The notes beneath the pieces are model-generated. The model ran no database searches. It worked only from the letters and a program-made list of their open reading frames with translations, and was not told where the DNA came from. DNA of 64,000 nt, from contig NW_027122668.1 of assembly GCF_030686945.1 (NCBI RefSeq), positions 124,099 to 188,098 of the forward strand, in the 5' to 3' direction. Source of the stretch: Centruroides vittatus (Eukaryota). Made by a program: the position numbers and the translations under genes. The first letter of the stretch is position 1; each line of letters begins with the position of its first letter. Below are positions 17,586-48,200 of the stretch, piece after piece.

Positions 17586-17886
17586 GAAAGGTGCCTCCTA
17601 GTGTTTTCTTGTCCTGAAGAAGTTCCATTCTAGAGAATTAAGAGTTTGAAAGAGGTTAATTTTTAAAAGTACACAAAATTTGACATGTTTAAGAGAAATT
17701 AAAGGAATTTCTCATCTTTCTATAAGAAGTTGAATTCTATAAAACTTTTAGGACAAACTGTACATATATATAATAATTAAAAGACCTTAAAAAGGTAATA
17801 AGGTGAAGTGATTTGAATTATTAATGTTTAGAAAGTTAAAATTGCTTTCAGTCTCATTTCACCTCAAAATTAATTAGAACTATATA

Positions 17887-18191: not shown

Positions 18192-18455
18192 AATTATATA
18201 ACAAATACATTTGGGTAGATTGTTTAGTATCTTTACTCATATATTTAATTATTTGTATGATTAAAAACTTAGTTGATTATGGAAGTTACTGTGTTAAAGC
18301 TATAGAAGTTTTTAAATATTTTCTGTTGTTGACCAGTGTATTAAAATTATAAATCTGTACAATCCAAATAAAGAAGTTTTTAAATTTAAATCATACAAAA
18401 TTTATAAGAAAATTGAATTCTTTTCTAATGTTTTCTATATTGTTTAGTTGGCGAA

Positions 18456-27400: not shown

Positions 27401-30400
27401 TATAATCGACACTCCGTAACCGACCCCCTTTCCCGCTCTCGTCGTCCTTTTATTGTCTCTGGTCACGTTTTGCTTTTTCACCAACCAGCGTTATTTGAGT
27501 GTTGTTCCTCATGATTCATGTTTTCTCCATGGATCCAAACAATAAAACATTTTATGGCGAGTGATTTTGGTTCCGGCAGGTTTGAATTTTCACAATATTT
27601 TATACATATATCATGGCATAAATATAGTTTTCCACAGTAAACTTAATTTAGAATTCCAGTTAAAAATTGATTTTAACCAAATATAGTTTTTAAATTATCA
27701 AAATAACTTTTCAATTTTGAATACAGGTACTCCTCACTTTACGATCGAGTTCCGTTCCGATGACTACATCGTTAAGCGAATTGGTCGATAAGTGGGGAGC
27801 TTGCTCCAGGAGTATAGGATCGTTGTAAAATTATCCAAATTATTCAACAAACTTCAAATTTATTCATAAAAAGACTATTATAGTACGCTATTAGCATATT
27901 ATAGTACTATAAGACTATTATAGTATGCTTAGTGCACATGTCACCATTTGCCACTGAACGACACTCAAGCTGAGAAAGGGGATTCCCTGAATTGCAGGTC
28001 GAAACTCGATTGGTCGTAAGTGAAAGTGGTCGTTAAGCAGATAGGTCATAAAGTGAGGAGTACCTGTAAAGTTAAGAAAATAGTTAGCAAGAATGTATGG
28101 CTCCACTTCATCAAAATATGGAAACTGAATAGCTCAAGCTCAAAATAGCTGCTTTAAAGTGACTTTCTGGGCTGTTCACTATGCTTTCTCAAATTTCTTT
28201 CATCGTCACTTTCGTGCAGATGCTCAGCTTTTCGAGTTTTTCGAGCTTTTCGAGTCAGACTTACCAATGGTCATTTTCCTATTTCTTAAACTGTTTAGAA
28301 AGTAATTTGGTGATTATACAATCTGGTGCTCGTGAAGTTTCGCACTCGTATTTCTGATGTTTTATACCACGTAACAGTATCTTTTCGATGCTGGTTCATA
28401 AGTGTAGAAATAGCCATTTTTGACATGTTACTGTAGTAATAACAATAATAATAATGGGCAGTATGACAGTAAAACATTATTAATTTACAGTTAAAATCTT
28501 TTAAAGTGTATGTAATAACCTTGTTGAAATGTAAAGAATATAGAAATTAACTTTCTACAGTTCATACAGTAAAATTTAAGACAAAATTTATTGGAAATTT
28601 TGCAATTTAACCGAATTAAAATTTTTATTTCCTGAAATACATTTAATTAATAATTGATTTTAAAAAACTTAGTTAAAATGTCACAAAGTTTTTCCTATTG
28701 TGAATTGTCAGATAGAGTTAATATGATACAGAAATAATTAATTTTTAGAAATAAGTTTTTACTTTATATTTTTGAAATCAATATTTTCAAATCAAAATTT
28801 TAAAATTTCTATAACTATAGACGATTTTATTTAAAACAGGGAGATAAATCATTCTTTTTACATCCTGGCGAACATTTGGAAGCTGGTATTCAAGAAATAC
28901 ATGTGTTGAGCGATAACGAAGGGCTTGTTTTACGTGCAAAAGAAGCTTTTGTAGATACCACCGTAACACCTGTAAGAAAGACTTTTTTCCTCGTTTATCA
29001 GTTTAATAATCATATTAACTATAAATGGGTATAATTTTACAACTTTGAAAACTTTTTATTTTAAAGGCAGTTCAGCGTCAGCCAGGAGATAGATGGATGA
29101 TCAGTGGTGCAGCAGAATATATACCTCCAAACGAAGTAGAAATTTTAGCGAAAAGAAATGCTATTCCTCTTGATGAAAATGAAGGAATATACGTTAGAAA
29201 TATTAAAACTGGAAAGGTAAGAGGAAATTTTTAAAAATTTTAGATAAATATGTTTTATCATTATAAGAAAGTTAGTTGGCTAAAAGTTTTATTTCTTTCA
29301 GCTATATTTTAATCTCAATAATAATGATAGAATGTACCTGTACATATTCTATTTAATAATAGATATTATGATAAATATTTTATTAACTGGATAAATAAGA
29401 CTACAATATAATATGAATTAAGAGTTCTGCCTTGGGCATGCGAGGCCATGCAGAGCAGTTTCTCCAGTGTGGTGGAGTCTGTAAACAAAAAGTCCAACTC
29501 CAGGAAATTTGTATGGTGTGACTCCTACCTCAGTTTTTTTTTTTTAAAGTAACACTAAGTAGATTCCTTTTTTAAGAAAGACATCATGTGCAGTGCCTGA
29601 ATATTTTATTTAACATTTCTCTATAAAATGTTTTTACTAAAATTTGATGATGGTAAGAATCAAAAAATGGATATAGCAAATTTACCTCAAAAACCTTTAG
29701 AGTACATAAACACACATCTTAATAGCCAAAAGAATTCCACTTTTATTAGTTAATTATGAAAAGTTGATTTTAAATTTAATTATTTTAAAGAAGAAAAATT
29801 AAATACAATAAATGCAAAAAATAACGATTTGATGACTGACGTAATAGCGAGGTTGAGGCCGAAGTTTTAAATGCGAAAACGTGTAAGAAAACGGACGTTC
29901 GGCACCGCTTTCCTGTAAGCCTAGAAGTTTTACAATGGTGTTTGGTGTCAGTGGAATCACGCTCGACATTCCAAATGCCATTGTCAAACTTCTAGGCTTA
30001 TCGGAAAGTGGCACCGAACGTCAGTCTTACACGTTTTTGCGTTTAAAACTTCTGCCTCAATCTTTTTAATAAATTGGTTCATAAAATAGTTTCTCCTGCT
30101 CTGGCTAGTTGACTAAACTGAAATATACAGTAGAATTTAAAGAAAAATATTTTTTTTTTCCAAATTTTGTCATCTTGGACCAATGGGTGCAGTCATACCC
30201 TGAGAACTTAAACCAGTGAAAAATAAGCTGGAACAATCTTATTAATTAAATTTTGTAGATTTCTCCTTTCTTAGTTTGTTGCAGTTAGATTCTGATCTTT
30301 GTTTTACTTTTTTCATTGATTTTTCTATTGACTGTTTTAAGACCAAATTATGATATCAAAGCTATAATAAATTACTCAAAACCAATAGAAGGGCAGTGAA

Positions 30401-33400
30401 AAAATTAATCAATCAAATTAGTAAAAAAAAAGTTGATATCCAAAGTAAAACATCTAAGATGTAAAAAATTATGGCACCCAAAATGAAAGTCAAATTTTTT
30501 TTTCTTGGGCTTCTCTTTGGTAAAGATGAGCTTAGCTTTTCGAAGCGATACCACATGCATTTACTTTCCAGGCGCAATCCCACGACTAACTACAAGTAAT
30601 CACTTGTAGTTAGTCGTGTTAGATTAATACAGATTAGTGGTGGAAATAGTGATTTTTATCCACTTGTCACTGGTGGGCCGTAGCTTTTACTAATTTATTT
30701 TCTGAAAGTACACACATCATGTATGAAACGACCTTTATGATTAATATCATTTTGATATCTAAATTAATTGAAGAGTCCATTTTCTAAGAAATTTCTTTAG
30801 ATACTAATTAAAAAGTGTATTTTTTTTTTTTTTTTACTTCACATTTTACAAATAGTAAACTTTGAGGTTGGAGTCAAAAGAATTTTACTGACTCCACAAC
30901 ACTTGTTTCTCCTCCTATTTTTGAATGTCCACTTGATATTTATACATGTGTAAATCATCTTATTTCACTACCAAATAAAATCTTTGTAATAATGCTAGTG
31001 ATAACTTTTAAAAAATAAAGCAAAATAATCACTAGTATTATTAAAAATAAAAAATAATTACAGACTTTAATAGCTCACTAGATAATATATTTAAGTATTA
31101 ATGTTTATATTATTTTTAACAAAAAAATGAAAATAGGTTCGTGCAGTCTGTGGAGAAACGTACATGATGAATCAAGATGAAGAACTTTGGGAAAAAGAGC
31201 TGTCGCCAAATGTCGAATCACTTTTGTCGGCTCATTACGATCCGATGGCCGATCGTGGACGGTGGGCAGATAAACAGTCTGCTACTTCTGCTGTTTCCAG
31301 AGATAAAACAAGAGTAATAACTTTTCGTGTGCCACATAATGCAGCGATTCAGATATATGATTACAAAGGGAAAAAAGCACGGTAAGTTGAAAATTTCACA
31401 AAAATACAGTAAGACATTATAATTTTTTTTTTTTTTTTTCCAATTTCTAAATTATTTCATATTTAAATTATGATTTAAATGTATTTCAAATTGTTTAGAA
31501 CAATATACTGAATATTACACAAAAATTGTTTGTAATTTTTAAATTTCATTTTCAAAATAGTGTGGTTTTTGGTCCAGAATTGGTTATGTTGGGACCGGAC
31601 GAACAGTTTACGCAACTAAGTTTATCAGGTCACAAGCCAAAAAAGCCTAATGTGATTCGGTCTTTGTGTCTTCTTCTGGGACCAGATTTTTGTACTGATG
31701 TCATTACTGTTGAAACAGCCGACCATGCTCGCTTACAACTTCAGCTTGCATATAATTGGTAAAAATTTCGGATAATTGTATAAGAAAATCTGAATAGTGT
31801 TTTTGATACTTTGATGATTTAAATTAAGAATATAATTGTTTTTAAATAATTGAAAATAATTTTATGTCGATAATTATTGTTATTTATTATTTAGGCACTT
31901 TGATGTAAGTCAAAAGGATGACGCGACAGCTTCTAAATTATTTGCGGTACCAGATTTTATTGGTGATCTTTGTAAAGCCGTAGCATCTCGCATTAGAGGA
32001 GCCATAGCATCGACTAATTTCGATGACTTTCATAAGGTTAGTAATTATTGTTGATGAAACACCGTTAATAATTTTGAGAATCCGATAACATTTTATGGAA
32101 TTGTTAAACAGAATTCTGCTACAATCATCAGAGCTGCAGTTTTTGGCTATGATTCTGATAGAAAGATCAGAAATAGATTAATCTTTCCACAGAATAATTT
32201 AGTAGTAACTAGTGTAGATATACAAAGTGTAGAACCTGTAGATCAGCGAACTAGAGATTCTCTTCAAAAATCAGTACAACTTGCAATTGAGATAACAACT
32301 CAAAGTCAAGAAGCAGCTGCCAGGTAACAAAGAAATGATGATTAAAATGCTTTATTAAATGTATATATTTTTTGTTTATTAATATTTTACATACTTTATA
32401 GACATGAAGCAGAAAGAAGAGAACAAGAAGCCAGAGGAAAATTGGAAAGACAAAGAATTTCCGACGAAGTAGAATCCGAACGAAGTCGTAAGGATCTTTT
32501 AGAATTACAGGCAGCTAGCATGGCAGTAGAAAGCTGCGGACAGGCAAAGGCAGAAGCAAAAAGCAAAGCCGAAGCCCTGAGAATTGAAGCAGAAACAGCC
32601 GTCGAACAAGCTAAATTGAAAGTTGATGCTATGACAATTGAAGCAGTATGAATCTTTTATGTTCCTTTTAATAGTTTTTCATTTATTGTAATAATCATAA
32701 TAATAGAAAAATAGAAAACTGAAATCATTTTCTAATATATTAATATTAAAGTTTCCTTTTATTTCTATTACATCAGATAGTTTTCAAACATTGCATTTGT
32801 TCAAATTTTTTTTATAGTGAATAATTTTGACTTTAGATATTTTCCTACTATCCTCTATTAGACAGGCTTGAATTAAACTTTATAAATACATTGAAATAAT
32901 TATTTAAGAAATGTTTTTAAATTGCTGCTGTTATATTTAAATAATTTCTTAAAAGGAAGCAGAATTGGAAAGATTGATGAAGGCCAGAGATGCCGAAATC
33001 AGTTATCTTCGCGAACAAGATGAATTGCAGATTAAGAAATCAAAAGAATTGGCAGAAATAGACGTACAGAAATGCAAGGATATAATAAGTGCTCTTGGAC
33101 CCGACACAATTCGTGCCATAGCTCTGGCAGGACCAGAACTACAGGTAAATTGATACGATATAAAATAGTTAATAATTCATAGTAGAGCTTCAGTTTTAAA
33201 ATAGTTTATCATATAAAAACAAATATCAAAATGATATTGCCAAGAAGTTGTTTCTTAATTACTTAATGAAATATTTACAAATATATAATTGACTACAATT
33301 TTGAGTTTACTTTTGAAAGTCTGTCTGTTCAGTCTGAGTTCAAGCTGAAGAAATACACATGTATGAACACCTATGTGTAAACTACATGCATTTCAGCTTT

Positions 33401-33620
33401 TCTAGTTCTTTATAATAAAATGAAAAGTTTATTTGCAAGAAACTCAAACAATATTGTCATAAATTCATTTTATTTTCAGGTAAAGATTCTTCAAGGACTT
33501 GGACTTCATACAACTCTCATCACTGATGGAAATTGCCCCATAAATTTATTTAATACTGCACAAGGATTGATAGGAAATTCCTTATTGGAACCACCCACTA
33601 AAATACAAAAGGTCGAATGA
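18456..33620 (+). CDS. MVP: Major vault protein, copy 1: intact 14-exon gene, 858 aa
   Basis: The translated exons match the MVP family end to end: [33 protein letters not shown]; [15 protein letters not shown]...[22 protein letters not shown]; [23 protein letters not shown]; [14 protein letters not shown]; [16 protein letters not shown]; [19 protein letters not shown]; RVVFGPELV...[32 protein letters not shown]; IRGAIAS..FDDFH; [33 protein letters not shown]; LLELQA.SMAVES.G.AKAEA.S.AEA.RIE; ALGP.TIR..A.AGPE.QVK.LQ.LGL..TLITDG..PINLF. Exons: join(18456..18598, 21464..21659, 25751..25871, 26183..26409, 26512..26748, 28840..28971, 29067..29216, 31137..31381, 31561..31758, 31895..32036, 32112..32323, 32402..32645, 32956..33144, 33480..33620). 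All introns are GT-AG with consistent phase. The total is 2577 nt, or 859 codons including the tga stop at 33618..33620. An acceptor, tgtttag|, immediately before the ATG exon implies an untranslated exon further upstream. Confidence 0.88.
19829..19856. repeat. (TTAG)7 microsatellite, present in copy 1 only
   Basis: The run tagttagttagttagttagttagttag is absent from the matching position in copy 2 (about 44990). Confidence 0.6.
20994..21420. mobile_element. Tc1/mariner-like MITE (TIR cagtagagcgtcgaaaagtggaac, TA duplication), present in copy 1 only, 43 bp upstream of MVP exon 2
   Basis: Filled site: aaataaa ta|cagtagagcgtcg...cgacgctctactg|ta ctataattt. The empty site in copy 2 (about 46735) reads aaataaatactataattt. 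The exon 2 acceptor is at 21463. Confidence 0.6.
22504..22727. mobile_element. Palindromic 225-bp MITE (same family as 6626..6854) in MVP intron 2
   Basis: tagtgaggttgaggcagaagttttaaacgtgaaaacgtg ... its reverse complement. The duplicated image is at 47816..48038. Confidence 0.55.
23479..23735. mobile_element. hAT-like MITE (TIR cagggccggcc, 8-bp duplication tgtgcaga), present in copy 1 only
   Basis: tgtgcaga|cagggccggccttctcg ... gatggccggccctg|tgtgcaga. Copy 2 (about 48910) has the empty site gactgtgtagaagttaattc. Confidence 0.55.
27011..27599. other. Copy-1-specific insertion of about 590 bp (GC-rich, unknown nature) in MVP intron 5
   Basis: Copy 2 (about 52110) reads ttaatatt|ttatacat without interruption. 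Copy 1 has gtgggtgcgcctggaagtgg...ggtttgaattttcacaatatt inserted between the direct repeats aatatt. It has no recognisable TIR, tail or coding signal. ORF 27317..27514 is unsupported. Confidence 0.4.
29844..30062. mobile_element. Palindromic 225-bp MITE (same family) in MVP intron 7
   Basis: tagcgaggttgaggccgaagttttaaatgcgaaaacgtgtaag ... its reverse complement. The duplicated image is at 54352..54570. Confidence 0.55.
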
Positions 33621-35473
33621 TTTTTCAGTACGTAAATATAGTAATTCACCACCTCCTTAACAAGTTACTGAATATTTCTTTGTCTGCAGGAATAAGGAAC
33701 TCGCTAAGGCCAATGTAAAATTGGATGACTGCCATTTTCATTCCTTAAAATAATTACTGTTACTTGCAAGTGTTAATGAAGTTTAAGACTGTGTGCAAAC
33801 TCAGATTTGACATTATTTTGTTGTTGAAATATGAGCATTCTATTTTTAATACTAATGATACAAATTGTTGTTTAAAATCAAATATATTTTTCTGCTTTTG
33901 CAATTTCTGTAAAATTAAACAGCTTTTCAAGTTTGTCTACATACCATGTGAGGGAAATTGATGTGCTTATAACAAATAAAAATGTATGCAGATGTTGATT
34001 ATTTATTTATCTAAATACATCTGCTAGTAGAATATATATATATATATTTATTCTACTAGCAGGCCAGTGTTGCCCAGGTAAAAAGTAATACAAATAAATA
34101 TTAAAATTTAAGCATTGCATAATAATTAATGGGGCTTTATTAGGTTTAATGCATTATTATATAATTTTCACTGCATCAAATTGAAATTATAGGATTCCAG
34201 AGGATTTCATCCATAACAATTACCCCTGCAGACCCAGCAATGTTTGGGACCCACAATTGGAAGAAATTTTAAGTTGGTAAGAAAGTGCAGTGAGATTTTA
34301 CATTGAAAGTTCTGTAAAGAATATTTTGTACATTTCATTACAGTAGCAAATCTTAAGGTGTTTTTTTGTATATGTAAAATTATCTATATCTACCCAAATG
34401 TTGGTTATTTGGAAAACATTATTGTTTGTATTGTTTCCAGGGAAAATAAATTTATTTGTAAATAATGTCATTGCTAACAAACTATTAGTTTAAGATGCTA
34501 AACTAGTTGATAAGTTATCTTTGGGTTCTGTAAAACTGACAAAGACAAGAGGATGCAATGTTATAACCAGTTTTCTTTTAATGAAAACAATGTTATGTGA
34601 AAATATGCCTTCCTTTCGTCTTCACAATAACTAAGTCCCAAGAGACCTATATTCCGCAACTTTTTTCTAAATTCTTTCCACCTTGTAGACATCGTTTTTT
34701 TTCCTCTATACCCATTGTGGGTTTGACCACACCCACAATGGAGACCAACAAGGGGTGAGGGATGGGATCTAACATGAGTTTAACTAAATGGGAAAACTCT
34801 GGGGCATTGCTTGCCCAGATTCAAGCCTGTCCCCAGAATGTTAGGCTTTACTGCCTTGGCCATCCAACCATCTCATGTTTCTTAACTATCTATGGGAAAC
34901 ATGTATATGCCGAAATTGGTTTTAACAGGAACGTAGACAAAGCATTCTCTCTAATAATGGTCAGATGGACGAGGTAGTTAAGGCATCAGCCCACTGCTCT
35001 GGGGATCCAAGATTGAATTCAGGTGGTCAAAAAAGATTTACTCATGGATCAGGTAAAAGATGAGCTCTTCAAAAAATTTGCAAGGTCCCTACTGTTTTCC
35101 ATTAAAGTACTGCAAGTTAGCTTATATTTTCTGCAAGATCCTAGTAACTGAAAAATTTGGTTTGATCAGTCAGATGGCTTAGAAGTGTACAGAGAACATA
35201 CAGGCAACAAATACACTATTTCTTATATGTAATTAAAACATAATTAGCAAATTCTGAATTATAAGTCAATATTGAAGATGATGATAATAATTAATATAAT
35301 GTGTAGCAAATCAACAACAAGAAGATCTTATGGATTTTATACATTATCAATACTACACCTTAAATTCTTGTATAGAGTTAATTTTCTTCTTTTCTGTATT
35401 GTTGGCATGCCATTAACTTCTCATAGATGTGCTAAAAAATTTCATTAGATAATGCTAATAAAATATTTGTATA

Positions 35474-35805
35474 CAGGGTGGGCAGCGAAAACGAAACGGC
35501 AGAGTGTTCGTGTTCGTCCAATCAAATCGCTCGGACAGGTCGATTTTATTCTCGAGGGAACATCTTATGCAATAAAGTTTTTGCAAATCTGAATATTAAC
35601 TAAACAAACATTTTTTTTCCGAAATAAATGTTTGTTTACTTAATACAAAATAAATGAGTTTTTAAATTTTTTTGTTGTCTGTTGTATTCAGAATCGCAAA
35701 AACATTATTGCAAAAGATGTCCCCTCGAGAATAAAATCGACCTGTCCGAGCGCTTTGCTTGGACGAACACGAACACTGCCGTTTCGTTTTCGCTGGCCCA
35801 CCCTG
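35474..35805. mobile_element. Foldback, mariner-like MITE (TIR cagggtgggcagcgaaaacgaaacggcagagtgttcgtgttcgtcc..., about 110-bp arms, TA duplication) lying just inside the 3' edge of duplication copy 1
   Basis: ta|cagggtgggcagcg...cgctggcccaccctg|ta. The arms are about 110-bp inverted repeats around an AT-rich centre. The identical element closes copy 2 at 59996..60329. The two copies share only the 6-bp TATATA after the MITE right TIR (35806..35811 and 60330..60335) and then become unrelated. Confidence 0.6.
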
Positions 35806-35814
35806 TATATAAAC

Positions 35815-37951
35815 TTATATAGAAAAAAGATATATTGCTACTAATGTATTCTATAATAGAGAGTAACTTATAAAAACCTCTACAATTATTTTATTTTCAA
35901 GATAAATTGTTACATAGAAATGATTTTCATTCATTATAACTATAAGTATTTAAAAATTACTAACCAGTAATGACTTTTCCAACAAATCTATTGACTTGAA
36001 AATTCTTCTAGAGATTAATAGTTTTCCCAAATTTTCTCTGGAATCTTCAGATAAAAATTTATTATGGTTTTTATAAATAAATGAAAAAACATATTAAAAT
36101 AATTAATAAATTAAAAGTTTTACTTAAAATGGCTGATAGTATTTTAATTAAAATTATGTATACACTGTATTTTTTAATTGGCCTATCAGTGAACGTTTTA
36201 ACTGTTTTACATAATTCTGCAGAGACGTAGTCTCAATAAAAGGGTGTCTGTGCGAACAAACACTGTTCTGGGTGATTAGACATGGCGGCAAGAAAGACCA
36301 CTTAGTTTTTTCAAATTTTTACCTAATAAGCAGTCGTAGAAAATATCTTGTGGGCAATAACAGACGAATTTATCTGCTAAATCATTCAATCCCGCATCAT
36401 CCAAATCTCGCAGAAGTTCTAAGAGTTCATCGGCGTATAATAGAAACAATGATTTAAAAGCTTCTATAAACCTACGAATTAATATATATTCCTCTTCTGA
36501 TTTCTTTCCTGAAAGATCATCAGATAAATATTAAGATTCGATCATAAAATTTTTGTATTAATTAATTTTTGAATCTTTCTTACCCAATTTCGAAGACTTG
36601 CAATATTTTAGTACTGAAATGTAACTGTTAATTCTGAGTTTCTTGAATTTGTTACAACATGGTATTAAATATTTAATTATTTTAAAGAATTTTACGATGT
36701 CATCGTCTCCTTTCTGGTAGGGGAATAAGGTAAAATGTTCGAATTTGAACTTATTGTCAGCATATTTGAATGCGAAGTCGAGTAATACGAATTTGAAAAA
36801 CTTCACTTCATCCAGAGTTCTCTAAAAATTATTTAACGGGTTAATTTATCAATTGTTTTTAAATTTTACGAGTAAACTTTATACTCACCAAAAATTCGGA
36901 ATTTATATATTCTGTAGAGAATTCATGAACAAAAGATTCAACGTTTTCTATCATACTCATTGTGATAAAACATTTCATTTTATTCTTGTCATTCAGGCGC
37001 AAAAAATAGGAGCTTTCGGACATTGCCTAAAAATGAACCTTACCTACTTAAGATTATTTATTAAATTTTTGCATACTTATTATGTATAAAAATATTACTA
37101 AATTCTAAAATATACTCATGTATAATCACACGATAAGAGAGTATTGAGATATCCGCTTTCGAATTTGGTCCTTTTTTTGAGCGTGTTCGTCATTCGATTC
37201 ACATTCAAGCAAATTAAACCGATTCCTGAGAATAGTACTGAAATCAGCTTGATTTACATGGCTATGATGTTTGGAACATGCAAAGCACTTCCCATTATAA
37301 AAATGAGACAATCCGGATGAAACTCGAATCCGGACTCTAGGAGTAAGCCGATGCCCTGACTACAAGGCCATTTAAACATATTTTAGCATTCGGTAGAGAA
37401 ATTATAAAACAAATTCAGTTACTAGACTTAATTTGCAACTTAATTGCAAAAAACCAAAATGATGTCATTATTACAAATGCTAGCATATCACGTAATTTGC
37501 AAATAATGGAGAAAATGTCTAATGTTGAAGCAGAGATAAAGAATTAATAACATTATTAATATATAACTTAATTTAATTTTAATTAAAATAATAATTTTGT
37601 GCGAAATTTGGGCTATGATAGGTTCGTATACTAATGAAGGAATTAATATTATGGAAGTGCCTCTAGTTGTTACATAAGAAATTTTTTAATTTCAAATTAA
37701 TACGTGTGACATGAATAACTACAGATTATATCTGTCAACTACAATATTAAAATAGGAAAACTTACAAAATATATTTTTCTTCGGAATTTTTTGCATCGAA
37801 GAATTCCAGGAGATCGAATGGATTCCAAATTCGATTTCTTAATAACGTATAAAAGTTTTAAATTTGCTTCTGTATTAACTTCGGATTCATTTTCAGAAAC
37901 ATAATTTTTTTCCTCGGATTCCGTGTCCGAATCGATGCTCTCCTCCTCCAT
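35815..37951 (-). CDS. Unknown-family protein-coding gene, 6 exons, 287 aa, acidic Ser/Glu-rich N-terminus
   Basis: Reverse-strand exons join(37766..37951, 36889..37026, 36584..36821, 36323..36508, 35965..36044, 35815..35850). Every intron is GT-AG (donors gtaagt, gtgagt, gtaaga, gtaaaa, gttagt) with matching phases. The total is 864 nt, or 288 codons including the taa stop at 35815..35817. Protein: MEEESIDSDTESEEKNYVSENESEVNTEANLKLLYVIKKSNLESIRSPGILRCKKFRRKIYF / AMSESSYFLRLNDKNKMKCFITMSMIENVESFVHEFSTEYINSEFL / RTLDEVKFFKFVLLDFAFKYADNKFKFEHFTLFPYQKGDDDIVKFFKIIKYLIPCCNKFKKLRINSYISVLKYCKSSKL / GKKSEEEYILIRRFIEAFKSLFLLYADELLELLRDLDDAGLNDLADKFVCYCPQDIFYDCLL / GDSRENLGKLLISRRIFKSIDLLEKSLL / NTLVAIYLFSI. 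I do not recognise the family. Confidence 0.55.
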
Positions 37952-38759
37952 ATCATCTTTAAAATGAAATCAAATTGATTATAAATACGTATAAAAGATT
38001 AAGCAGAAATACTCGCATTGGCCAAGTTAAAAACAACCAAAATTTGAATTGTAATGTTTGTGTTTATTTCTTTCTTCCCAGTCAACCACTGCTAGTTGCC
38101 TGGAAAGAAATACTGTTTATACTAATGTCACCGTGAAAACTCTCCGTGCTGGTAATCTGCAATCAAACTATACAAAGTTTAAACCTTGTATAGTTTGGCA
38201 GTGAAGGGAAGTGTATTAACACCTAAATAGCGACTCGTGAAAGTTCTCCCGGGAGGCACCCCTCCTTGACAAATTGCCACGTGTTGCCCACCAAACTAAC
38301 AACGTAATTAAATGCCATACGGGTTTTACAAGTGGACAATCGTGTTTTGAGGAATTGAGGAACAAAATTGCTTGTATTGGCCCCCTCTTCCACTCATTTC
38401 ATTTTGTCAGTCTAATTTCATAACACCCTGTAAAATGTAAGAGTTTATAATAAAACATTCCTGAAAAATCTTCATTATTCGCCTTACTCAACTTTAAAAT
38501 TTCGCTATTTTAGTTTTATATTTACGTTTTTAGTAATTCGGTATCTAATTAGTGTTACTTTTTGGCCTTTTAATTTTTTAAATAATAAAATTTTTTTTAA
38601 ATAATAAAAAATTAATGTGTGTTTTGTGTATATAATTATAATTTAAAAAATGTAAATGCTAGTAACAAGTAAAGCCGGATGCACACATGCGGCGCGGCAA
38701 GGAAAAGCGGCAGAATGACGTCACTTTTAATTATTATGCCTTTGTGTCCTTAATTATAG

Positions 38760-39006
38760 CTTAAATTTATCTTTGTATACTAAGTACAGTACATTTATCA
38801 ATTAACAGGACTTATTATACTGGAAAATTATGGATGCAGATATTTAGTCTTACTGATCAGAAATATTATAAAAATAAAAAATATAAAAAAACTAAATAAA
38901 AAATATTATTTCTGATCAGTAAGACTAAATATCTGCATCCATAATTTTCCAGTATAATAAGTCCTGTTAATTGATAAATGTACTTAGTATACAAAGATAA
39001 ATTTAA
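38760..39006. repeat. Near-perfect hairpin: two inverted arms of about 105-110 bp around a 35-bp A-rich loop
   Basis: Left arm: cttaaatttatctttgtatactaagtac(agtac)atttatcaattaacaggacttattatactggaaaattatggatgcagatatttagtcttactgatcagaaatattat. The loop follows, then the exact reverse complement. The only mismatch is a 5-bp agtac bulge. The flanking direct repeat gacgtcactttt lies at 38707 and 39007. ORFs 38866..39123 and 38978..39175 are artefacts of the palindrome. Confidence 0.7.
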
Positions 39007-39142
39007 GACGTCACTTTTTCTCGCCGCAGAAGTCGATTTTGTGCCGCTTTTCTCGTGCTGCAAAAGTTGGTTGAATTCTACTTTTGGCGGCGGTCGCCGC
39101 CAAGAGACGTTTCTATCAGCCAATAACAGTTCGTCTGGTTGT

Positions 39143-39250
39143 CACGTGAGAAAATACAACCACGTGGTGTTTTAATGGCGGAAAGTTCGACGCGGTTAAC
39201 CGAGATAACAAACAGAATGAAGAGGAAAGGATAATAAATTTGGTAACATT
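39143..39250. repeat. Second copy of the 105-bp CACGTG-containing repeat unit found at 1..107
   Basis: gtcacgtgagaaaatacaaccacgtggtgttttaatggcggaaagttcgacgcggttaaccgagataacaaacagaatgaagaggaaaggataataaattt. Confidence 0.5.
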
Positions 39251-40641
39251 CTAGGAGGGGAAGGGGGGGTTAACCCCCCCAAACGATAGACCCCCTGTGC
39301 GATCAAAAAATGTCTAATGAACCACACCCCTACGGGCGACCCCTCACGAGATATAGCCCCCCCAAAATCGGGCCGCGCGAGATCGCGGCGCGCGTCGCTC
39401 AGCGCGCGCGTCTCCCTGCTAAGCGCTCGCGTCGCTCAGCGAACGTGATAGCGATATGAAGCACACGCGACAAAACGTACGTCATTTCCGGTCACGTGAC
39501 TCCGCAAAATGGAAAATATAAAATCGTTTATATATAGTCACTTTTGAAGGTTAGTGTAGAATCTGTTTTCTTCGCCTTTTACATCGGCAGTTAGAATGTA
39601 TAGTTCTTTTCGCTTAGCAGCGCGCCAGTCAATTGACGTGATCTAACTCACGTGTATTGGGTTGATAATCGGTTCAGATAGCCTTTACCCATTTGGGTAA
39701 TCCTATTTCACACTGAGTACGATTATATGTCGGTGGCCGACTCGTAAGGACCAATCGTAACGGGTGTTAGAAATCGTTTTAATATGATCTTATTTCGTTT
39801 ATAAATTCTTACGAAAAGTCTAAATAATACCATCTTTTCTCGTTACGTCGATAATGTTTTTTAATATAAGGAAATGGTTAGTAAGTTTACAAGCGGTTAC
39901 AGTGGCAGTCGCGCGCGATATCCTAGCAAAGCGACGCGAGCCGCGACCTCACGCGCGATACTCTTAGCAGAGCGACGCGCGCCGCAATCTCGCGCGACCC
40001 GATTTTGCGGGTAAATAAAAATGCGTATTATTTTCGTTAAAGTTATTTATTAATAATTATCTACGTTATTGAAATATTAATATAGCCATAAAAATGGTTG
40101 GAATTCGAAACCAACGAATAAATTATTGCTTTAAGTAATCTTTATAACAGAAACTAAAAATAGTATCGATATTTTAATTTATTTTATTATATACTATAAT
40201 TAATATTAATAATCGAAGACTTAGAAATCGTTTAATTCTATTAAATTGTCCTTTCTTTTAAACTGCTCGAATTGCCCTTTCTTTTTCCTTTACTCGGATC
40301 GAGTCGATTAAGCCTAAAGCTGTATTAAAAGCGGTATTAAAGGTGGTCGCTCTCGCTCGTTTACCTCGCTTTCGTTTCGAAGAATAATTGGTAAGGAGGG
40401 GGGACCCCCCAAATTATAGACCCCCCTGTGCGAAAACAAAGGGAAAAACAAAATTTTGGTATATTACGTAGGTGTCACGTGACCGGGATGACGTAGGTAT
40501 AGTCCTCCCGATTCGATGGCGCGGCCCGATTTTGGGGGGGCTATATCTCGTGAGGGGTCGCCCGTAGGGGTGTGGTTCATTAGACATTTTTTGATCGCAC
40601 AGGGGGGGGTCTATCGTTTGGGGGGTTAACCCCCCCAAACG
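39241..40641. mobile_element. Composite non-autonomous TIR/foldback element with about 120-bp G/C-homopolymer-rich terminal inverted repeats and CACGTG palindromes
   Basis: The left terminus 39250..39370 (gggggggttaacccccccaaacgatagaccccctgtgcgatcaaaaaatgtctaatgaaccacacccctacgggcgacccctcacgagatatagcccccccaaaatcgggccgcg) is the reverse complement of 40500..40640. A nested second inverted pair (39370..39440 against 39900..40010, the cgcgagatcgcggcgcgcgtcgctcagcg motif) lies inside. A direct partial copy of the terminus sits at 40380..40440. CACGTG occurs at 39493, 39650, 40478 and 40651. ORF 40414..40638 reads through the TIR and is spurious. Confidence 0.5.
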
Positions 40642-41715
40642 TCTTCACCCACGTGGTATTCGGGAGCTTTCTCGTTCTCGTCTTTCCTCCTTCAGCTCTG
40701 ACTCAAAAGTGACTCTTTGTCTTGGTTCTACCCCTGAGGGCTGCATACAGTCCTATTGTCCATAATGGGGTCACCTATTGTTAAGCCGTTAAGCACCGGT
40801 CAGGGAAGGGTTCCAGGAAGTAAAGATAATATGAATAGGAAAGAGAAGGAAAAATATATTCTAAGTTAAAATAAAATATAACTATATATTACACAAATGG
40901 CATTTAGCCACAATATATCTACTGACCAGGTTGTCATTTTGACATTTTAAGCATTAATATATAAATTTCAGTAATATTTTAAAGATCATTGACTGAGATT
41001 TTATATAAATAATAAGGTATTATTTTAATTGCATGTCTTAACAAATATTTTAATAATTTCTTTAATATATTTCAATAATAATAAATCTAATGTTTATGTA
41101 AAAAAAAAAATTGTTAAGTATGATTTATGCTGTTTACTTTTACGCATGAAATCAAATATGTATTTTTAGTCGGGAAATATATTTTGTAATGCTTGTTTTT
41201 ATATTACTTTAATGTTGTTAATCATCATAAATTTTAATTATTTAATGTGTTTATCAGGTTTCTTTGAATTACATTAGTAATTATTCTAAAAATTTATTTA
41301 ATTTATTCTAATTTTTTAAATGTTTTTCAGTAAATATTAATTTTTTTTAATTTAAAAAAGATTTTCTTCTGATTAAATGTAATCTTAACAGTTTTATTTG
41401 ATATAAGAATAGTGATTCTGGATTTTAAGATTATGAAAAATAATTGCTTCAATAAAGTATGTTTTAACAAATTTTTGTGCTAGAAAGGGATGAAAGGTTC
41501 TCCTAGTGTTGAAGAGAAATTAAAGGAATTTTTCATCTTTTTATTAGAAGTTGAATCCTATAAACTTTTAGGACAAATTATACCTTTGTATAATAATTAA
41601 AAGACCTTAAAAAGATAATAATGTGAAATGATTTGAATTATTAATGTTTAGAAAGTTAAAATTGCTTTCAGTCTTTCATTTTACCTCAAAATTAATTAGA
41701 ACTATATAGGCCTAT

Positions 41716-41810
41716 CGTATTTTACGGACTATAAGACGCACCTTTTTCTTCGAAAAATTGCCTCCAAAATTCAGGTGCATCTTATAGTTCGTAAAATACG
41801 GTAATTGTTA
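41716..41810. mobile_element. Small palindromic MITE (cgtattttacggactataagacgcacc ... ggtgcatcttatagttcgtaaaatacg), copy 2 only
   Basis: A perfect inverted repeat with about 30-bp arms. It sits at the site where copy 1 carries the unrelated Tc1-like MITE 17887..18191. Confidence 0.45.
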
Positions 41811-42287
41811 ACGTATATAATTAACTTTATTATAATATACAAACATAACTTTGTGGTAATACAAACTATTGTGCCTCCAGGTCTAAGGGTCACCACAGCT
41901 AACATACAACTGCCTGGAGACAAAGGAACATGACAAAGGTCAAAGGTGAGGGGTTGCCTAACTAGGTCAAGGGGCAATTCGGTGTGGGTTATCTCCTGGA
42001 GGTTTATATACCTAACAATAATTATATAACAAATACTAAATAATATCTTTGTATATCTTTACTCATATATTTAATTATAATTATTTCTATGAGTAAAGAT
42101 TTAGTTGATTATGGAAGTTACTGTGTTAAAGCTATAGAAGTTTTTAAATATTTTCTGTTATTGACCAGTGTATTAAAATTATAAATCTGTACAATCCAAA
42201 TAAAGAAGTTTTAAAATTAAATCATACAAAATTTTATATGAAAATTGAATTATTTTCTAATGTTTTCTATATTGTTTAGTTGGCGAA

Positions 42288-45200
42288 ATGACCACTCCAA
42301 AGCATAATCGTAATGAGGAGAGTATTTATAGGATCCCACCGTATTATTATTTACATGTTTTGGACCAGACATCAAATGTTACAAGAGTGGAAGTCGGTCC
42401 ACAGACATATATTCGCAAGGAAAATGAAAGGTATGAAAGTTAACTTAAATAAACCTGAACAAAGCTATAATAATCTCATAGTACAAGTTATATATGAAAT
42501 TAAATTGTAGTATTAAGTCTGCACCATATTAATTTTAAGCTGTAATTAATTGATTTATCAAACTGTTTATTTGTGACTGTCGGCCATATTGTATATATAT
42601 ATTTTATTGTATATAGTTGTAATCCTATCTTATTTTTGCAATTTCCTCCTTTTTCCTTTGTCTATTCTTTCTTAAACTTTCCATGACTGTTATCGCCATG
42701 TGGCTGGATTAGACGTTCCGAGAATCGGTAGGGACAATAACAGGTAGTGTGGCCTGGGGAAAAAGTGGCTAAGAGAGGGGTCACTTTTCGACTAGATACG
42801 AAGAGAGACGGACGGCAAGAGCGAGGCTCGATCGTGATTTCCGAGAGAGGAAAGAAGTGCGATAGTCGAGTGAAGAGCCGAAATATAGAGACCGGCATAT
42901 TGGAGAACCCCAATAATTGAGAGAAGAAAGGATAGTGAAGAAAGCCACTATCGTCGGATCCAGGTTCTACACAAAGTATCAATACGTATCCGCCGAAAAA
43001 GAGAAAACCCCGGGTGAATCATCCCTTCATTTCTTCTACCTTTCTGCTGTCCTATCTTTCTTATTTTTCCTTAATATTAAGAGTTTAGATTTAAGTTAGG
43101 TTAGTCAAGTGTTTACGAGGGACCGATTGTTACGCGCTTAAAAATTAACACACCTCGAATTGTAAATCAGTTGGGATTCCTTAACAACAAGAACCTTATT
43201 TGTTCTAAGTGGAATAAAGGAACATTGTTTATTATTGTAGTCGTTGCAGTGTCCTTTTCTGTACGTTTCATTCGCAGGCCATACTGCCACACTCTTATAG
43301 AACACCACATATTCTTAGAATTTTGAGTTATAAAATATTTCTTTTACTAATGATTGATTTTGAAATTTCCTTTTGCCAATATACATGGTATGATCCAAAA
43401 GTTCGGGGAATGCAGTAATCTATGACAACAAAAGCATGTATTTGAAGTTACAGCGTATGAAATGGATTCTACCAACTCACCTCTACGTGTTCAGGTTAAT
43501 TTCACCCATGTCATGTGATTAAATCGTGAGCGCTGCTGGTTTTTCCGGAGATAGTTACCTTTGTCCTGCGACGTAATCAAAGTGGAGTTTCAAGAACAAC
43601 CTCCAACATTTCGACTTCACCGTGACCTTTCACCGTAGAATCACCATACACCTTTCTTAGCAATTTTAAAATCTCCGTAGGTGTTTTCCCTAAACGCTGC
43701 CAAAATTTAATGTTGGAGGTTGTTCTTGAAACTCCACTTTGATTACGTCGCAGGACAAAGGTAACTATCTCTGGAAAAAAACAGCAGCGCTTGCAGTTTA
43801 ATCACATGACATGGGTGAAATTAACCTGAACACGTAGAGCTGGTTTGGTAGAATCCATTTCATACGCTGTAACTTCAAATACATGCTTTTGTTGTCGTAG
43901 ATTACTGCATTCCCCGAACTTTTGGATCGTACCACGTATATACTTTTTTTTCTCTTTACTATTCAATGCATATTTATTCCAATATACAATTGTAAATCAA
44001 AAACTATTTATTTTTAATACATTAAAATTATTATTCTTTACTTTTATTAATGTTCTTACTTTTAAAAATAAACCATGTAAATAATGAAATACAGTAAAAC
44101 TTCTGTAACTTGAAGTTTTTTCCTGCCTCTTTCAAGTTAGACAATTCAAATTAGAGAACAATACTGATAAATGCCAATTCCAAGTAGATTAGATCTCTTG
44201 CATTTTATATAAAGAATCTTTGATAGTTTTTTGTTTTAAACAGCTGTTTAATGCCTTTTCATCATGTTCAATGTAGCTAACAGAATCAGTTTTTTGCAGG
44301 TAGAGTACATCTTATTGAGATAAAGCAACAGATCATCTCATTTTGGACTGGAATGTTGTCTATAAATGGGTGTTGGACAGTATATACAACTAACTGTCTG
44401 AAAACTTCATGAAAATCAACAATTAGGATCACTTCAGACAGAATAAATATTAAAATTCAAGTCAGGATCAAGTCAAATATAAATCTAAATTGAACCAAAT
44501 ATTTCACAAGATTCTAAAAAAAAAGTTACAATAGAACACATGTAAATGTCACTATAGAATATGAAAAATATAAAAATATAGAAATATAAGAAAAAAAAGA
44601 CTTACTTTTGAAAAGAATAAGATTGTTATTGCAATAAATTTGCACTTCCACAACAACCTAAATCAACTTTCACAAGGTTTTGGTTTCTTTTCTTCCCATA
44701 CTTGTGGTGCCATCTACAAAAGTTCTTCCCTCTTTCTTCTCCTGTATATTTCCATTTTATGGGTAGAAGACAGAACTAGAGTTAAAATGGATTCTAAGCA
44801 ATGAATTCTGTAAAACTGTAGCTCCTCAATTAATTAACGAACATTGAATCTACTAATTAAAGTACCTTACAATAGAATATTACTTATATAATATAAGAGT
44901 ATAAATAAAACATAATTTTATTATCATAGTGATATTTTGATAATGATAAGTATTAGGTGACAAAATCGAGTTCTATGGTCTTAACCAAACAGTGACAGAA
45001 CTGAGGGAGCAATTGTAAAAGGTGCAGTGCGAAAGGAAGACATAATGCATGGTCCAATTAAACAAATTTAATTTTGTGCTTAAAAATATATATACAGTTT
45101 CTTTAAGGTTTCCCACTGTTGTACAATTCCGGCTACCTTCTGATGGTTTCAACGTTACAGGCGGTTCAGCTAGTTGATCTTATCCCAACTACTAACCAAC

Positions 45201-48200
45201 AATGGTTCGTGTCTAATAGTCTTTGGCTACTTTGTAACTAAAATTTTTATGTACGGTGCAATTACCGCTAGTTAACACTAGTCAAGTTGGCTACTTTTTA
45301 AATTGTAAATTCCATGTATCTAACATCCAATTTATTCTTTTTATTATGTGTTACCTTTCAAATGTCTACTAGACACTGTGGAATAGCCTTTGCCCTTTTA
45401 ACTGTCTTCATTATCACAGTATGTCGTGCACTACACTCCAGCCATCTCAATACTGTATATCTTAATATTATTGTAAAATGCAACTAGCATTATTTGAATT
45501 AACAACAAAACTGGTTACTGACTACATCGATGTACTTATGTTACTCTATATTCTTATAATATTGTATTGTATTCAAATTGAACCAACCTCTTGTTGGAAA
45601 AGTACTCCCATTTTGTATATACTGTTAATTCTGTACACATTTGTATTCTATTGCATCTTGTTTTAATTGAATAAATGGCGATGCAGATGCCCATGGGGTC
45701 CCTTGGGGGCCTCGTGGTTGCTATTTTCACACTTTCCTATCTTTCTTTGTTTCTTCTTCCACCTAACTTCTCTTTTCTTATTCTCTTCTTTCCGCTTCCA
45801 ATAGGGCTAAGTCTGATGCTAAGTATGGATAGCCCCCTTTTCCTTTAATCCAAAGTCCAAAGTCTCTTGCACGATTCCTAATCTAACTTAATCTAATAGA
45901 AGGTGGATAGAAGAAGGGGAAGTAGGAAGAATAATAGAATAGGGGGTACCCAATTTATCGGCAAGTAGTCAAAGTATTTCTTCGTCTCGACTTCCGAGTC
46001 TTGAATGTTTTATTCTCTTGCAGATCGGCTGTCTCGGAGTTCTCCTCCAGATCTATCAATATACTTCTTTCTTGATCCGTTCTCTATGGTCTCCTTTTTC
46101 ACAGTGCTTGTTGGATTCCACTTACGAACCTTGCCACCACACATCCATTACCTCTTGTGTCCGGCCCAAGAATGTTTCTTGGAATTTCTATTTTCCCCTC
46201 CAGCCTCGTCGCAGACTATTGTTTTCACTCTACCTCCTGGTGGGCTAGGGGTGAGTCTGAGTTCTCAGAAGTTCGAAACAAAGGGAATTGGAAGGAAGGA
46301 TAAATTTATAGAAATAGAATATAAAATTAAATTAAAAACTATACAAAATAGAATGGTGTACAGCCACATGATATTTGTGAGGGTGACAAAAATGAGGGAT
46401 GAGTGTAATCCAGTCTCTATGAAAAATTTGATCACATTATGAATTTTTTTTATTCTAGAGTTTAGTTTTGATGTTACAGGAATTCCTTGACTTTTGGACA
46501 ATTCCCTCCACCTCTTTTTTTGTACATTATATTTTGATACCTCTGAGTTACTTTTCTTAGATAAAATTTGGATTTTTATACATTTTCAGCAACAAAAAAA
46601 AACATTTGAGAGATTGTGCAGTGACTTTCTACTGATCTAGATTTTTCTAACATAAAAATCAATTCATTTTGTAAAAAATTACAGTAGAGGCCATCATAAT
46701 ACCATTTTGTTTTATGTAAAATAGAAATAAATACTATAATTTTTAAATAAAATTTTATAATTAAATATTTTCAGAGTTATTTTGGGACCCGAAAAAATGA
46801 TCATTGTTCCTCCAGGTCATTATTGTGTGATACAAAATCCTGTGATAAGAGACAATGATGGAATTATTCAATATGATCTATATGGTCAAAGTAAACTGCG
46901 ACATGCTGACTTAGAAATAAGATTACAGCAAGATCCTTTTCCTTTATATCCTGGAGAAGTTTTGTTTCAGGTCAGAAGATATTAAATATTCAATTTTTCT
47001 TAAAAATTATTTTAAGTTTAAGCACATATTAATTTATACATCATAATTAATTTTATAACTTTATTGTACATTGATAAAGAAAGTACAGATTCTATCAATA
47101 TTTGATTTATATAGAAGACTAAGATTTTATTGTCGTGCTATCTATATCCTGGCTGATTAAGTATATCTTACCAAATTACATATCATCTATATATTTAACT
47201 AGCCAAGTTACAGTTTGATAATAAACCCAATTTTATCATTTAAGTAATAAAATCAATTATGTAGTGTATATTTTTGATATTTATTAATTAACGTCAACTA
47301 ATTTTAAGTGGATGAATAAAATAACTTTTTATACTGATATCAATAAACAATTTATTAGATTATATTATCAGAATTCATCTTTGTCTTCATATTACTCAAT
47401 TTTTCATTTTGAAATAGTAATATTTGTGTTCTTTAATTTTAATTTTGCAATTTCATCAAATTTAAGTTACATTTGTGCTATTGTATGCTTGTAAAACAAA
47501 TATTTTTTTCAAGAATACACTAACAAAACATATATAAACGTTTTGAAAATATTTGTGTTAGATGTTTAATTTTAATATTATTCTTAATATACATTATAGT
47601 CATTCTTTACTTATTAGTATATTAGTGTTCTCCAGAAATTTTTACCAGTGAGATGAAATGTGTGAAGAGGTTCCAAAAATGGGTTTAAATTAAACATTTA
47701 TTATAGAAACTTATTAAAACAAAACTAGAGGAAAAACACCTCCATTGTTAAAACGGATGAAAGATCGGATTCTTTGTGCTAGTCATATGAAACTGGGCAA
47801 GGAAATAAATACTATTAGTGAGGTTGAGGCAGAAGTTTTAAACGCGAAAACGTGTATGTCGGACGCTCAGCGCCGCTTTCCGTAAGCCTAGAAGTTTGAC
47901 AATGGCATTTGGAAAGTCAGTGGAATCATGCTCAATATTGCAAACATCATTGTCAAACTTCCACGCTTATAGGAAAGTGGTGCTGAACATCCGACGTACA
48001 CGTTTTCTCATTTAAAACTTCGGCCTCAACCTCACTATTAATGTAAAACACAACACAATAAATGTAAACGAATGTTCTCCAGTAGAGATGGACCTATGAC
48101 AAGGCACTCGTATAGAAGTAAATAGAACATAGAAAAATTTTGGAAAGGGGAACGGTTAATTATGAAAGGAGACATTGTGTCAGGCCATTAAAATTCTAAG

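Follow-up and report, generated by a model that had tools for sequence, protein, structure and literature searches.

Repeats occur at breakpoints of rearrangements through ectopic recombination, as with Alu elements at the junctions of human segmental duplications and Galileo foldback elements at inversion breakpoints in Drosophila. Such cases need homologous copies at both breakpoints. The scorpion locus described here is similar in that a repeat of the foldback type lies at a rearrangement breakpoint, but the element is present at one of the two breakpoints only. A second comparison is offered by the Stowaway-like/Tc1-mariner MITEs. Like these, the scorpion element is small (332 bp) and non-coding, has terminal inverted repeats (TIRs), forms a near-complete foldback and is flanked by a TA duplication within a (TA)n tract. 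Unlike them, it represents one insertion that became two copies via duplication, with no other copy in the 64 kb studied and 48 kb of sister-species DNA.

In Plasmodium falciparum, tandem amplification has been described at 'trigger sites', where a stable hairpin is the lesion and an A/T tract provides the microhomology (Huckaby et al. 2019, PMC6393310). The scorpion locus shares with these sites the AT-rich genome, a stable hairpin beside a breakpoint, tracts of only A and T at both breakpoints and a signature of error-prone repair at one of them. However, its hairpin is a transposon, its tracts are short (TA)3 stretches and not long monomeric A/T runs, its junction contains a 5.1-kb insertion, and it records one evolutionary event where the Plasmodium work had replicated laboratory selections. 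The MMBIR/FoSTeS framework covers non-recurrent duplications whose junctions contain inserted sequence (Hastings et al. 2009, PMC2621351). Here too the duplication is tandem, the breakpoints are non-recurrent, the tracts at the ends are of microhomology size and foreign sequence lies at the junction, but the insert is large and TE-rich, without a template in the window or the C. sculpturatus loci. Finally, alternative (reversed-ends) transposition of Ac/Ds and dhAT elements in maize leads to tandem direct duplications (Zhang, Zuo & Peterson 2013, PMC3744419), whose signature is a loss of the match in the junction copy's flank directly at the TIR/TSD (PMC3744419). As in maize, the scorpion TE is at the same end of each unit, one copy having both original flanks and the other the inner flank only. 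In contrast to maize, the match at the junction runs 4 bp beyond the TIR/TSD, the element is single with no reversed partner end, and the junction spacer is unrelated.

Duplicate units and their breakpoints

The window, i.e. the whole 64-kb stretch of DNA that was analysed, was compared with itself by BLAST and with 48 kb of orthologous scaffold DNA from C. sculpturatus, a close relative of the Centruroides bark scorpion that the window derives from. Together with the orthology of the flanks, this gave a tandem duplication of approx. 19 kb with the order U-D1-S-D2-F. Unit D1 (16781..35811, plus strand) is joined to the ancestral upstream flank on the side of the OXSM/KAS gene and unit D2 (40913..60335, plus strand) to the ancestral downstream flank F (60336 onward), with the junction spacer S between them. 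The duplicated segment comprises the whole major vault protein (MVP) gene and the foldback element. All MVP exons are present on the plus strand in both copies, with the coding region of copy 1 (aa 1-858) at 18456..33620 and that of copy 2 at 42288..58142; an additional C at approx. 55814 shifts the reading frame of copy 2 in the exon for aa 403-484. With a hand-assembled 861-aa MVP query the C. sculpturatus MVP protein was reached, while a single 73-aa MVP exon used as protein query matched only short metagenomic fragments. The C. sculpturatus assembly contains one full MVP gene.

This single gene, and the 100% identity of the two copies over approx. 2.9 kb (31594-34535) of the 3' part, would fit an assembly artefact in which two haplotypes or a mis-join were set in tandem. 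The 5' parts of D1 and D2, however, are 11% different and carry different TE insertions, the window has no Ns, the junctions are clean, and D1 and D2 continue into different ancestral flanks. We consider an artefact very unlikely.

At the distal end the self-BLAST homology stopped at 35811/60335, i.e. after the right TIR and TATATA, and the next bases were unrelated. The hexamer (35806..35811, and 60330-60335 in copy 2) consists of the TA duplication and the leftover (TA)2 of an ancestral (TA)4. The first-pass annotation had placed the right TIR 6 bp inside the copy edge with unrelated sequence beyond, and the boundary alignment agreed with this: past the element only the 6 bp of TATATA matched, and no homology between the two flanks continued further. 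The proximal breakpoint was found in an (AT)3 tract, ATATATCTAC, which forms the first bases of D2 (40913..40922; 16781-16790 in D1) approx. 1.7 kb upstream of the MVP start codon. Both breakpoints are therefore in short TA tracts, the distal one directly after TATATA and the proximal one directly before ATATATCTAC. Earlier described as free of the element at about 16800 and 40915, the 5' breakpoint could be refined to 16781/40913, and neither an element copy nor a TIR was detected there. The proximal boundary is uninterrupted ancestral sequence, colinear with C. sculpturatus and without an excision footprint, and in its ancestral state the site has no significant hairpin (z = -1.4).

An insertion of 21 bp (16791..16811), found in D1 only, begins 10 bp downstream of the proximal-breakpoint position. 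It is an inverted copy (21/23 positions) of the 23 bp at 16765-16787, from which it is separated by a loop of 3 nt, TAC (16788-16790). The resulting hairpin has z = -4.3, and 2 of 1676 control positions scored as well or better. We concluded that the insertion is a scar of snap-back templated repair.

The foldback element and its empty site

Both duplicate copies end with the same foldback MITE, as had been annotated before. The junction copy (35474..35805) is 332 bp long with the termini CAGGGTGGGC and GCCCACCCTG, and has TA at 35472-35473 and at 35806-35807. The distal copy (59996..60329) is 334 bp long and lies in the ancestral context, with TA on both sides and a downstream flank orthologous to C. 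sculpturatus. Identity between the two element copies is 98.5%, and they are 3 substitutions and one 2-bp indel apart. Each carries terminal inverted repeats, starting with CAGGGTGGGCAGC and ending with GCTGGCCCACCCTG, and in both copies the arms are 92-93% complementary over 93-116 nt. The hairpin predicted for the element DNA has a dG of -141.5 kcal/mol (z = -28.6 against shuffles). No coding capacity was detected, the longest stop-free stretch being 54 codons in 332-334 bp. From these features the element is a putative non-autonomous, TA-targeting foldback MITE (Tc1/mariner-type, Stowaway-like). Its TIRs may bear some resemblance to Tc3-like TIRs.

The first-pass annotation had proposed a search for additional copies. 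None was present in the 64-kb window or in the 48 kb of C. sculpturatus DNA, and no other TIR match was found in the window when up to 2 mismatches were allowed. The TIR 20-mer had no match in JGI metagenome and IMG/VR contigs, nor did the TIR string in the collection of papers searched. In scans of the whole window no Rfam family reached the threshold and no tRNA was called. A SINE at 60417 has a tRNA-like head, which the scan did not call as tRNA.

In C. sculpturatus an empty site, TTTG(TA)4TTTT, was found at approx. 35770-35785 of the orthologous locus, exactly at the position of the element. The filled site in the window reads TTTGTA-TA(element)TA-TATA. Homology to C. sculpturatus ends at 35473/59995 and picks up again past the element in copy 2. 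Because of this empty site and the TA duplication, the comparison shows the element to be a genuine lineage-specific insertion with a TA target-site duplication, which entered the (TA)4 tract after the lineage of the window split from C. sculpturatus. In copy 1 it is positioned approx. 1.85 kb downstream of the MVP stop codon.

Possible causes of the element at the duplication edge

The 44.6 kb of non-redundant sequence contains 8 foldbacks and 65 occurrences of TATATA. A random breakpoint would fall within 6 bp outside a foldback end in approx. 0.25% of cases, so coincidence is unlikely; for breakpoints restricted to TATATA the chance of lying next to a foldback end is approx. 1.5%. We concluded that a link between element and breakpoint is more likely than chance. 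To this extent the earlier suggestion of a TE-associated breakpoint stood, but neither of the two routes then offered, recombination between MITE copies and transposition-coupled duplication, was borne out by the results given below.

Our leading interpretation, to which we assign a probability of roughly 45% for this one case, is that the hairpin together with the TA tract served as a breakage and template-switch site for the duplication. With respect to transposition the element would have been a passenger, contributing through its DNA structure. The 332-bp hairpin or cruciform beside the TA tract would have stalled or broken a replication fork, and the free end would have been healed through an MMBIR/FoSTeS-like process, either microhomology-mediated template switching or end joining. 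This repair would first have taken up foreign sequence, the core of S, and then re-entered the region at the upstream TA tract, whereby the gene and the element were copied a second time. In the parental sequence the very stable hairpin lay 6 bp from the distal breakpoint, and in D1 the scar of error-prone repair lies 10 bp from the proximal-breakpoint position; both favour this interpretation. The location of both breakpoints in TA tracts capable of complementary pairing would fit template switching through putative microhomologies at the junctions. Against this interpretation speak the length of the TA tracts, which is only 6 bp, and the frequency of TATATA given above. The timing is tight as well, since the 5' divergence between the copies is about that between the species, yet C. 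sculpturatus is without the element.

TA tracts attract Tc1/mariner insertions and may themselves be fragile, and a common cause could thus have acted with no part for the hairpin. The same TA tract would then have been the target of the insertion and, independently, the site of a break or of microhomology. The ancestral site was indeed a (TA)4, and a TA tract likewise forms the other breakpoint, which has no foldback and, ancestrally, no significant hairpin. The scar in D1 shows in addition that TA tracts here break and get repaired without a MITE nearby. Nevertheless, of the approx. 65 TATATA sites that the non-redundant window contains, just one abuts the element, and a breakpoint at that very site would be the 1.5% event calculated above even if breakage in a TA tract is granted. 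We regard such a common cause or coincidence as rather unlikely.

The identity of D1 and D2 climbs from approx. 89% at the 5' end (88.7%) to 100% at the 3' side, with its peak at 31.6-34.5 kb, and either copy is 87.6-89.4% identical to C. sculpturatus. Because of this rise from 89% to 100% toward the 3' side, the alignment indicates that later gene conversion homogenised the 3' part of both copies. From 34.5 kb to the edge the differences mount again, from 0 to 3 in 938 bp and then 4 in 332 bp. Set against 3 events over the 3880 bp next to it, the 4 in the 332-bp element are an excess (Fisher p = 0.001). Hypermutation of the palindrome was considered as the cause of this excess, but it is accounted for just as well if the latest conversion tract ended before reaching the element. 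The further idea that a conversion hotspot was centred on the element is weak, as identity peaks away from it.

The gradient bears on another explanation, in which the edge at TATATA is the end of a later tract of repair synthesis or gene conversion. The element would have inserted into the distal copy after the duplication and then been copied into D1: with D2 as the template for mending a break in D1, synthesis would have run through the element and halted just past it, leaving an end that joined S at TATATA. The gradient demonstrates recent conversion at the 3' side, and the timing problem raised by C. sculpturatus and the 5' divergence disappears. The element copies, however, differ more than the adjacent sequence, with the Fisher value given above, and the element therefore lies outside the latest conversion tract. 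The path is also more elaborate, as it needs conversion on one side and end joining as the last step, and its stop point must still coincide with the end of the element. We find this explanation distinctly unlikely.

Aberrant transposition mediated by a transposase (one-ended, between sister chromatids or with reversed ends) would have cut at the right TIR and inserted this end into a new TA. The layout agrees with the maize events (PMC3744419), with one TE having both original flanks and the other only its inner flank, and the TA beside the TIR is compatible with it. But the flank at the junction matches the ancestral flank for 4 bp past the TA, which disfavours the transposition-coupled duplication of the first-pass annotation. 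TATA follows 1.5% of the TA sites in the window, and a match of 6 bp requires that the target already read TATATA, i.e. ...TA/TATAAACTT. A second compatible element end is also missing, with no other TIR in the window at up to 2 mismatches, and the spacer is not built of sequence that flanks the element. The sister-chromatid version, as derived here, predicts no element after the distal copy, where one is present. We judge aberrant transposition improbable.

Ectopic recombination (NAHR) between two MITE copies could account for the element at the junction and at the distal end. It would, however, have left three copies, one at each outer end and one at the junction, and the proximal one is missing from a boundary that is colinear with C. 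sculpturatus and lacks a footprint. It would also have left abutting units, where here 5.1 kb of unrelated DNA lies between them, and the homology runs 6 bp past the element and not just to its end. This route, too, had been suggested earlier and now has next to no probability in our estimate.

As an instance of a transposon beside a duplication breakpoint, the locus is clean but ordinary. It is a well-resolved natural example, with an empty site in the outgroup and breakpoints at base level, of a hairpin-forming transposon at the edge of a whole-gene tandem duplication, with neither ectopic recombination nor a clear transposase junction. As a single case its value is chiefly in the annotation of the locus: two MVP copies, one of them frameshifted, a lineage-specific MITE, a gradient of gene conversion and the removal of a spurious gene call. 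If the pattern recurred genome-wide, the copy-number model of hairpin plus A/T tract would extend from Plasmodium to animal genomes, and MITEs would gain a structural role in gene duplication. A more far-reaching proposal is that foldback MITEs in TA tracts are recurrent trigger sites in scorpion genomes, which fix the ends of tandem duplications and afterwards initiate or delimit gene conversion. Where a single TE family is distributed would in that case help to decide which genes duplicate and for how long the copies stay identical, but we see little chance of this.

The junction spacer and the supposed 287-aa gene

Spacer S (35812..40912) is 5.1 kb long, TE-rich and non-coding. Its left half is AT-rich and without a supported gene. 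Its right half consists of nested TEs, namely a foldback (38760-39007), a repeat that has its end at 39241 and a TIR element (39263-40641). A minus-strand gene of 287 aa had been placed in the spacer, with its stop codon next to the MITE. The TAA at 35815..35817 is present on the minus strand, but a gene ending there is not supported: only 11 open codons lie upstream of the TAA, and no ORF of at least 60 aa ends at it. The longest ORF in the inventory of the spacer is at most 91 aa. Six ORF pieces from 35.8-38.0 kb gave nothing significant in Pfam, where the best match (E = 0.17) was below the gathering cut-off. A 277-aa concatenate of five minus-strand pieces had 0 phmmer matches at E<=0.001 among 1.84 billion representative proteins. 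We concluded from these searches that a protein-coding gene of 287 aa is not supported in the spacer, and the claim that its 3' UTR runs into the MITE falls with it.

The 48 kb of orthologous C. sculpturatus DNA contained no counterpart of S, and in the window and the loci of the sister species only TE-type matches were obtained as a source. The ends of S showed no Helitron or LTR termini, and internal direct repeats were absent. Because the unrelated spacer sits exactly at the junction, its capture during the duplication event is a better fit than a chance hit on the junction by a later insertion. Given the long time elapsed, much of S may consist of later TE insertions.

Layout and age of the duplication

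The ORF at 8152-9219 was 99% identical to the mitochondrial 3-oxoacyl-ACP synthase of C. sculpturatus, and the major vault protein (MVP) gene in the duplicated unit was complete, with 97% identity to the C. sculpturatus protein. The C. sculpturatus scaffold regions around both genes were taken as L001 and L002. Their non-coding DNA was only 80-88% identical to that of the window, thus the window comes from a related species and the two scaffold pieces could be used as an outgroup. Self-BLAST of the window gave colinear duplicated blocks from approx. 16.8 kb to 35811 and from 40.9 kb to 60335, the final block stopping exactly at 35811/60335. In the outgroup MVP lies between an upstream flank (U) and a downstream flank (F); copy 1 of the window runs on from U and copy 2 runs on into F. 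F was recognised by BLAST (L002 36063-37283 against window 61536-63684), and the first ~90 bp beyond the copy-2 element aligned to L002 by eye. The spacer between the copies, S (35812-40912), had no counterpart in the outgroup, of which 48 kb were covered. By this comparison the event was a tandem duplication with the arrangement U-D1-S-D2-F, where D1 (16781-35811) and D2 (40913-60335) are the duplicate units and S, lying exactly at the junction, is foreign.

Identities were computed on alignment columns that the outgroup has in common with D1 and D2. The block nearest the 5' end was star-like (D1-D2 88.7%, D1-outgroup 89.4%, D2-outgroup 87.6%), and from 31.5 to 34.0 kb D1 and D2 were 100% identical, each being 5-10% different from the outgroup. 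Taken together, these two blocks indicate that the duplication dates from about the time of the species split and that the 3' part of the copies was homogenised later. D1-D2 identity, ~89% at the 5' end, climbed gradually and monotonically until it reached 100% at 31.6-34.5 kb, and then dipped slightly towards the element; this is a gradient of gene conversion between the tandem paralogues. TE insertions, too, set the older 5' parts apart, e.g. 42571-43937 in D2. No D1-D2 difference was found in 31594-34535, three were found in the following 938 bp and four events within the 332-bp element, an excess in the element over the preceding 3880 bp (Fisher p = 0.001). On the simplest reading the latest conversion tract ended short of the element, and both copies would then have had the element already before that tract arose.

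The foldback element and the two breakpoints

The same foldback element was read in both regions, at 35474-35805 and 59996-60329, bounded in both copies as TA/CAGGGTGGGC...GCCCACCCTG/TA and followed by TATA. An inverted-repeat scan gave arms of 93-116 nt that were 92-93% complementary, plus a 24-nt inner palindrome. As single-stranded DNA the element was predicted to form one long hairpin with a free energy of -141.5 kcal/mol (z = -28.6; mean of shuffles -35.5 kcal/mol). Homology of L002 to both copies ended at 35473/59995, the last base before the element, and picked up directly after the element in copy 2. The outgroup sequence TTTG(TA)4TTTT, against TTTGTA-TA[element]TA-TATA in the window, is an empty site in C. 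sculpturatus, and it shows a true insertion in the lineage of the window, which hit a (TA)4 tract and duplicated its TA target site. By its structure the element would be classed as a TA-type (Stowaway-like) MITE. At least four further foldback/TIR element families were seen in the window (6628-6850; 22501-22729; 29842-30060, with 47813-48037 and 54349-54567; 11956-12145; 15722-15877), one of them with ~5 copies, some within MVP introns. Foldbacks made up ~4.6% of the non-redundant sequence of the window.

In base-by-base alignment the copies were identical through TATATA and unrelated thereafter, which places the distal breakpoint where the TA tract ends on its outer side, ...CCCTG-TATATA. 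The first-pass annotation had placed the element at the end of both copies with its edge TATATA past the right TIR; reading, self-BLAST and alignment agreed with this to the base, and no homology continued beyond 35811/60335. Three-way alignment placed the proximal breakpoint directly 5' of ATATATCTAC, at 40913 in D2 and 16781 in D1, within the ancestral sequence GAATAATATATATCTAC. Both ends of the duplication thus lie in short TA tracts. Neither a copy of the element nor its TIR was found at the proximal end, as had been noted before.

D1 alone carried a 21-bp insertion at 16791-16811, missing from copy 2 and the outgroup and beginning 10 bp downstream of the D1 position homologous to the left breakpoint of D2. 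Its sequence repeats the 23 bp at 16765-16787 in inverted orientation (21/23 positions), with the 3-nt loop TAC (16788-16790) between the two. This inverted-copy score was equalled or bettered at only 2 of 1676 control positions, and the hairpin created by the insertion had z = -4.3. Such a structure is characteristic of snap-back templated repair, and the scar may stem from the duplication itself or from an independent breakage in the TA tract.

Origin of the junction

A TE-associated mechanism had been proposed earlier, either ectopic recombination between MITE copies or transposition-coupled duplication. The breakpoint is likely to be linked to the TE, but neither of the two mechanisms fits. 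Recombination between MITE copies would require that the units abut directly and that the proximal end hold a third copy. The sequence shows neither, and this route is excluded. In the published signature of a transposase-made junction the flank match of the junction copy is lost right at the terminus (PMC3744419), whereas here it goes on for TATA past the TA, a continuation that follows merely 1.5% of TA sites. Moreover, no partner element end was found in the window, and a transposase-made junction is disfavoured.

With 8 foldbacks in 44.6 kb, the adjacency of breakpoint and foldback has a chance of ~0.25% for a random breakpoint and ~1.5% for breakpoints limited to TATATA sites; chance adjacency is unlikely. 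The best-supported reading, which we infer from the hairpin of very high stability next to a TA tract, the TA tracts at both ends, the foreign DNA that sits exactly at the junction and the scar of error-prone repair at the other breakpoint, is that breakage or fork stalling occurred at the hairpin/TA site. This would have been followed by microhomology-mediated template switching (the MMBIR model; PMC2621351) or by end joining. Trigger sites of hairpin plus A/T-tract have been described for amplifications in Plasmodium (PMC6393310). The main rivals of the best-supported reading are that the TA tract alone was the common cause, or that repair synthesis carried the element over from D2 to D1 at a later time and the edge is where its tract ended. 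The latter would ease a problem of timing: the outgroup lacks the element, yet D1 and D2 differ in their 5' part as much as the two species do. Neither transposons at duplication breakpoints nor hairpins at copy-number breakpoints are new; what is added here is a well-resolved example from a scorpion and not a new kind of system.

Spacer, MVP copies and flanks

A minus-strand 287-aa gene had been proposed to end at 35815-35817, with its 3' UTR running into the element. No ORF of at least 60 aa terminates there and just 11 codons are open upstream of the TAA. The minus-strand pieces at 35.9-38.0 kb that most resemble ORFs had no significant match in Pfam, and a 277-aa join of five of them found none at E<=0.001 in a search of 1.84 billion representative proteins. 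The gene was not upheld, nor was a 3' UTR of it that runs into the element. The nearest real transcript is MVP, with its stop codon ~1.85 kb upstream of the element. No stretch of S stayed open beyond 91 codons, and the right half of S consisted of nested repeats. A repeat end was common to the window start (1-104) and S (39141-39241), 97% identical, which suggests a young, uncharacterised TE family; its copy in S was interrupted by a 248-bp foldback (38760-39007), and just after it lay a 1.38-kb element whose TIRs measured 116 bp (39263-40641).

All exons were kept in both MVP copies. Compared with copy 1 and C. sculpturatus, copy 2 had an extra C at ~55814, outside any homopolymer, which shifted the frame in the exon for aa 403-484. 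Copy 2 may be a pseudogene despite its near-identity to copy 1, or the extra C may be a sequencing error. In C. sculpturatus scaffold KZ494992.1 a local repeat of MVP 3' exons (L002 22075-25466 against 28602-31835, 99.7-99.9% identical) adjoined a 2218-N gap and had been given its own annotation, an MVP-like gene of 339 aa. The repeat has the appearance of a scaffolding or haplotype artefact; alternatively, it may be what is left of a collapsed duplication in C. sculpturatus as well.

Approx. 80 bp past the edge of copy 2 a SINE-like insertion (60417-60635), with a tRNA-like GC-rich head and an A-rich tail, was flanked by a ~9-bp imperfect direct repeat (AAAATTAG/AAAATTGG) and was missing at the orthologous C. 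sculpturatus site; ARAGORN and Rfam made no call on it. Relatives were seen at 5633-5872 and 6919-7146; the 456-bp 'foldback' at 62493-62948 is made up of an inverted pair. Further into the ancestral downstream flank, a C2H2 zinc-finger-like ORF (63361-63708, plus strand) overlapped the region orthologous to a C. sculpturatus 232-aa gene model starting at L002 36960. Upstream of the OXSM gene a 339-aa ORF (4041-5060, plus strand) had, by eye, the look of a multi-pass membrane protein.
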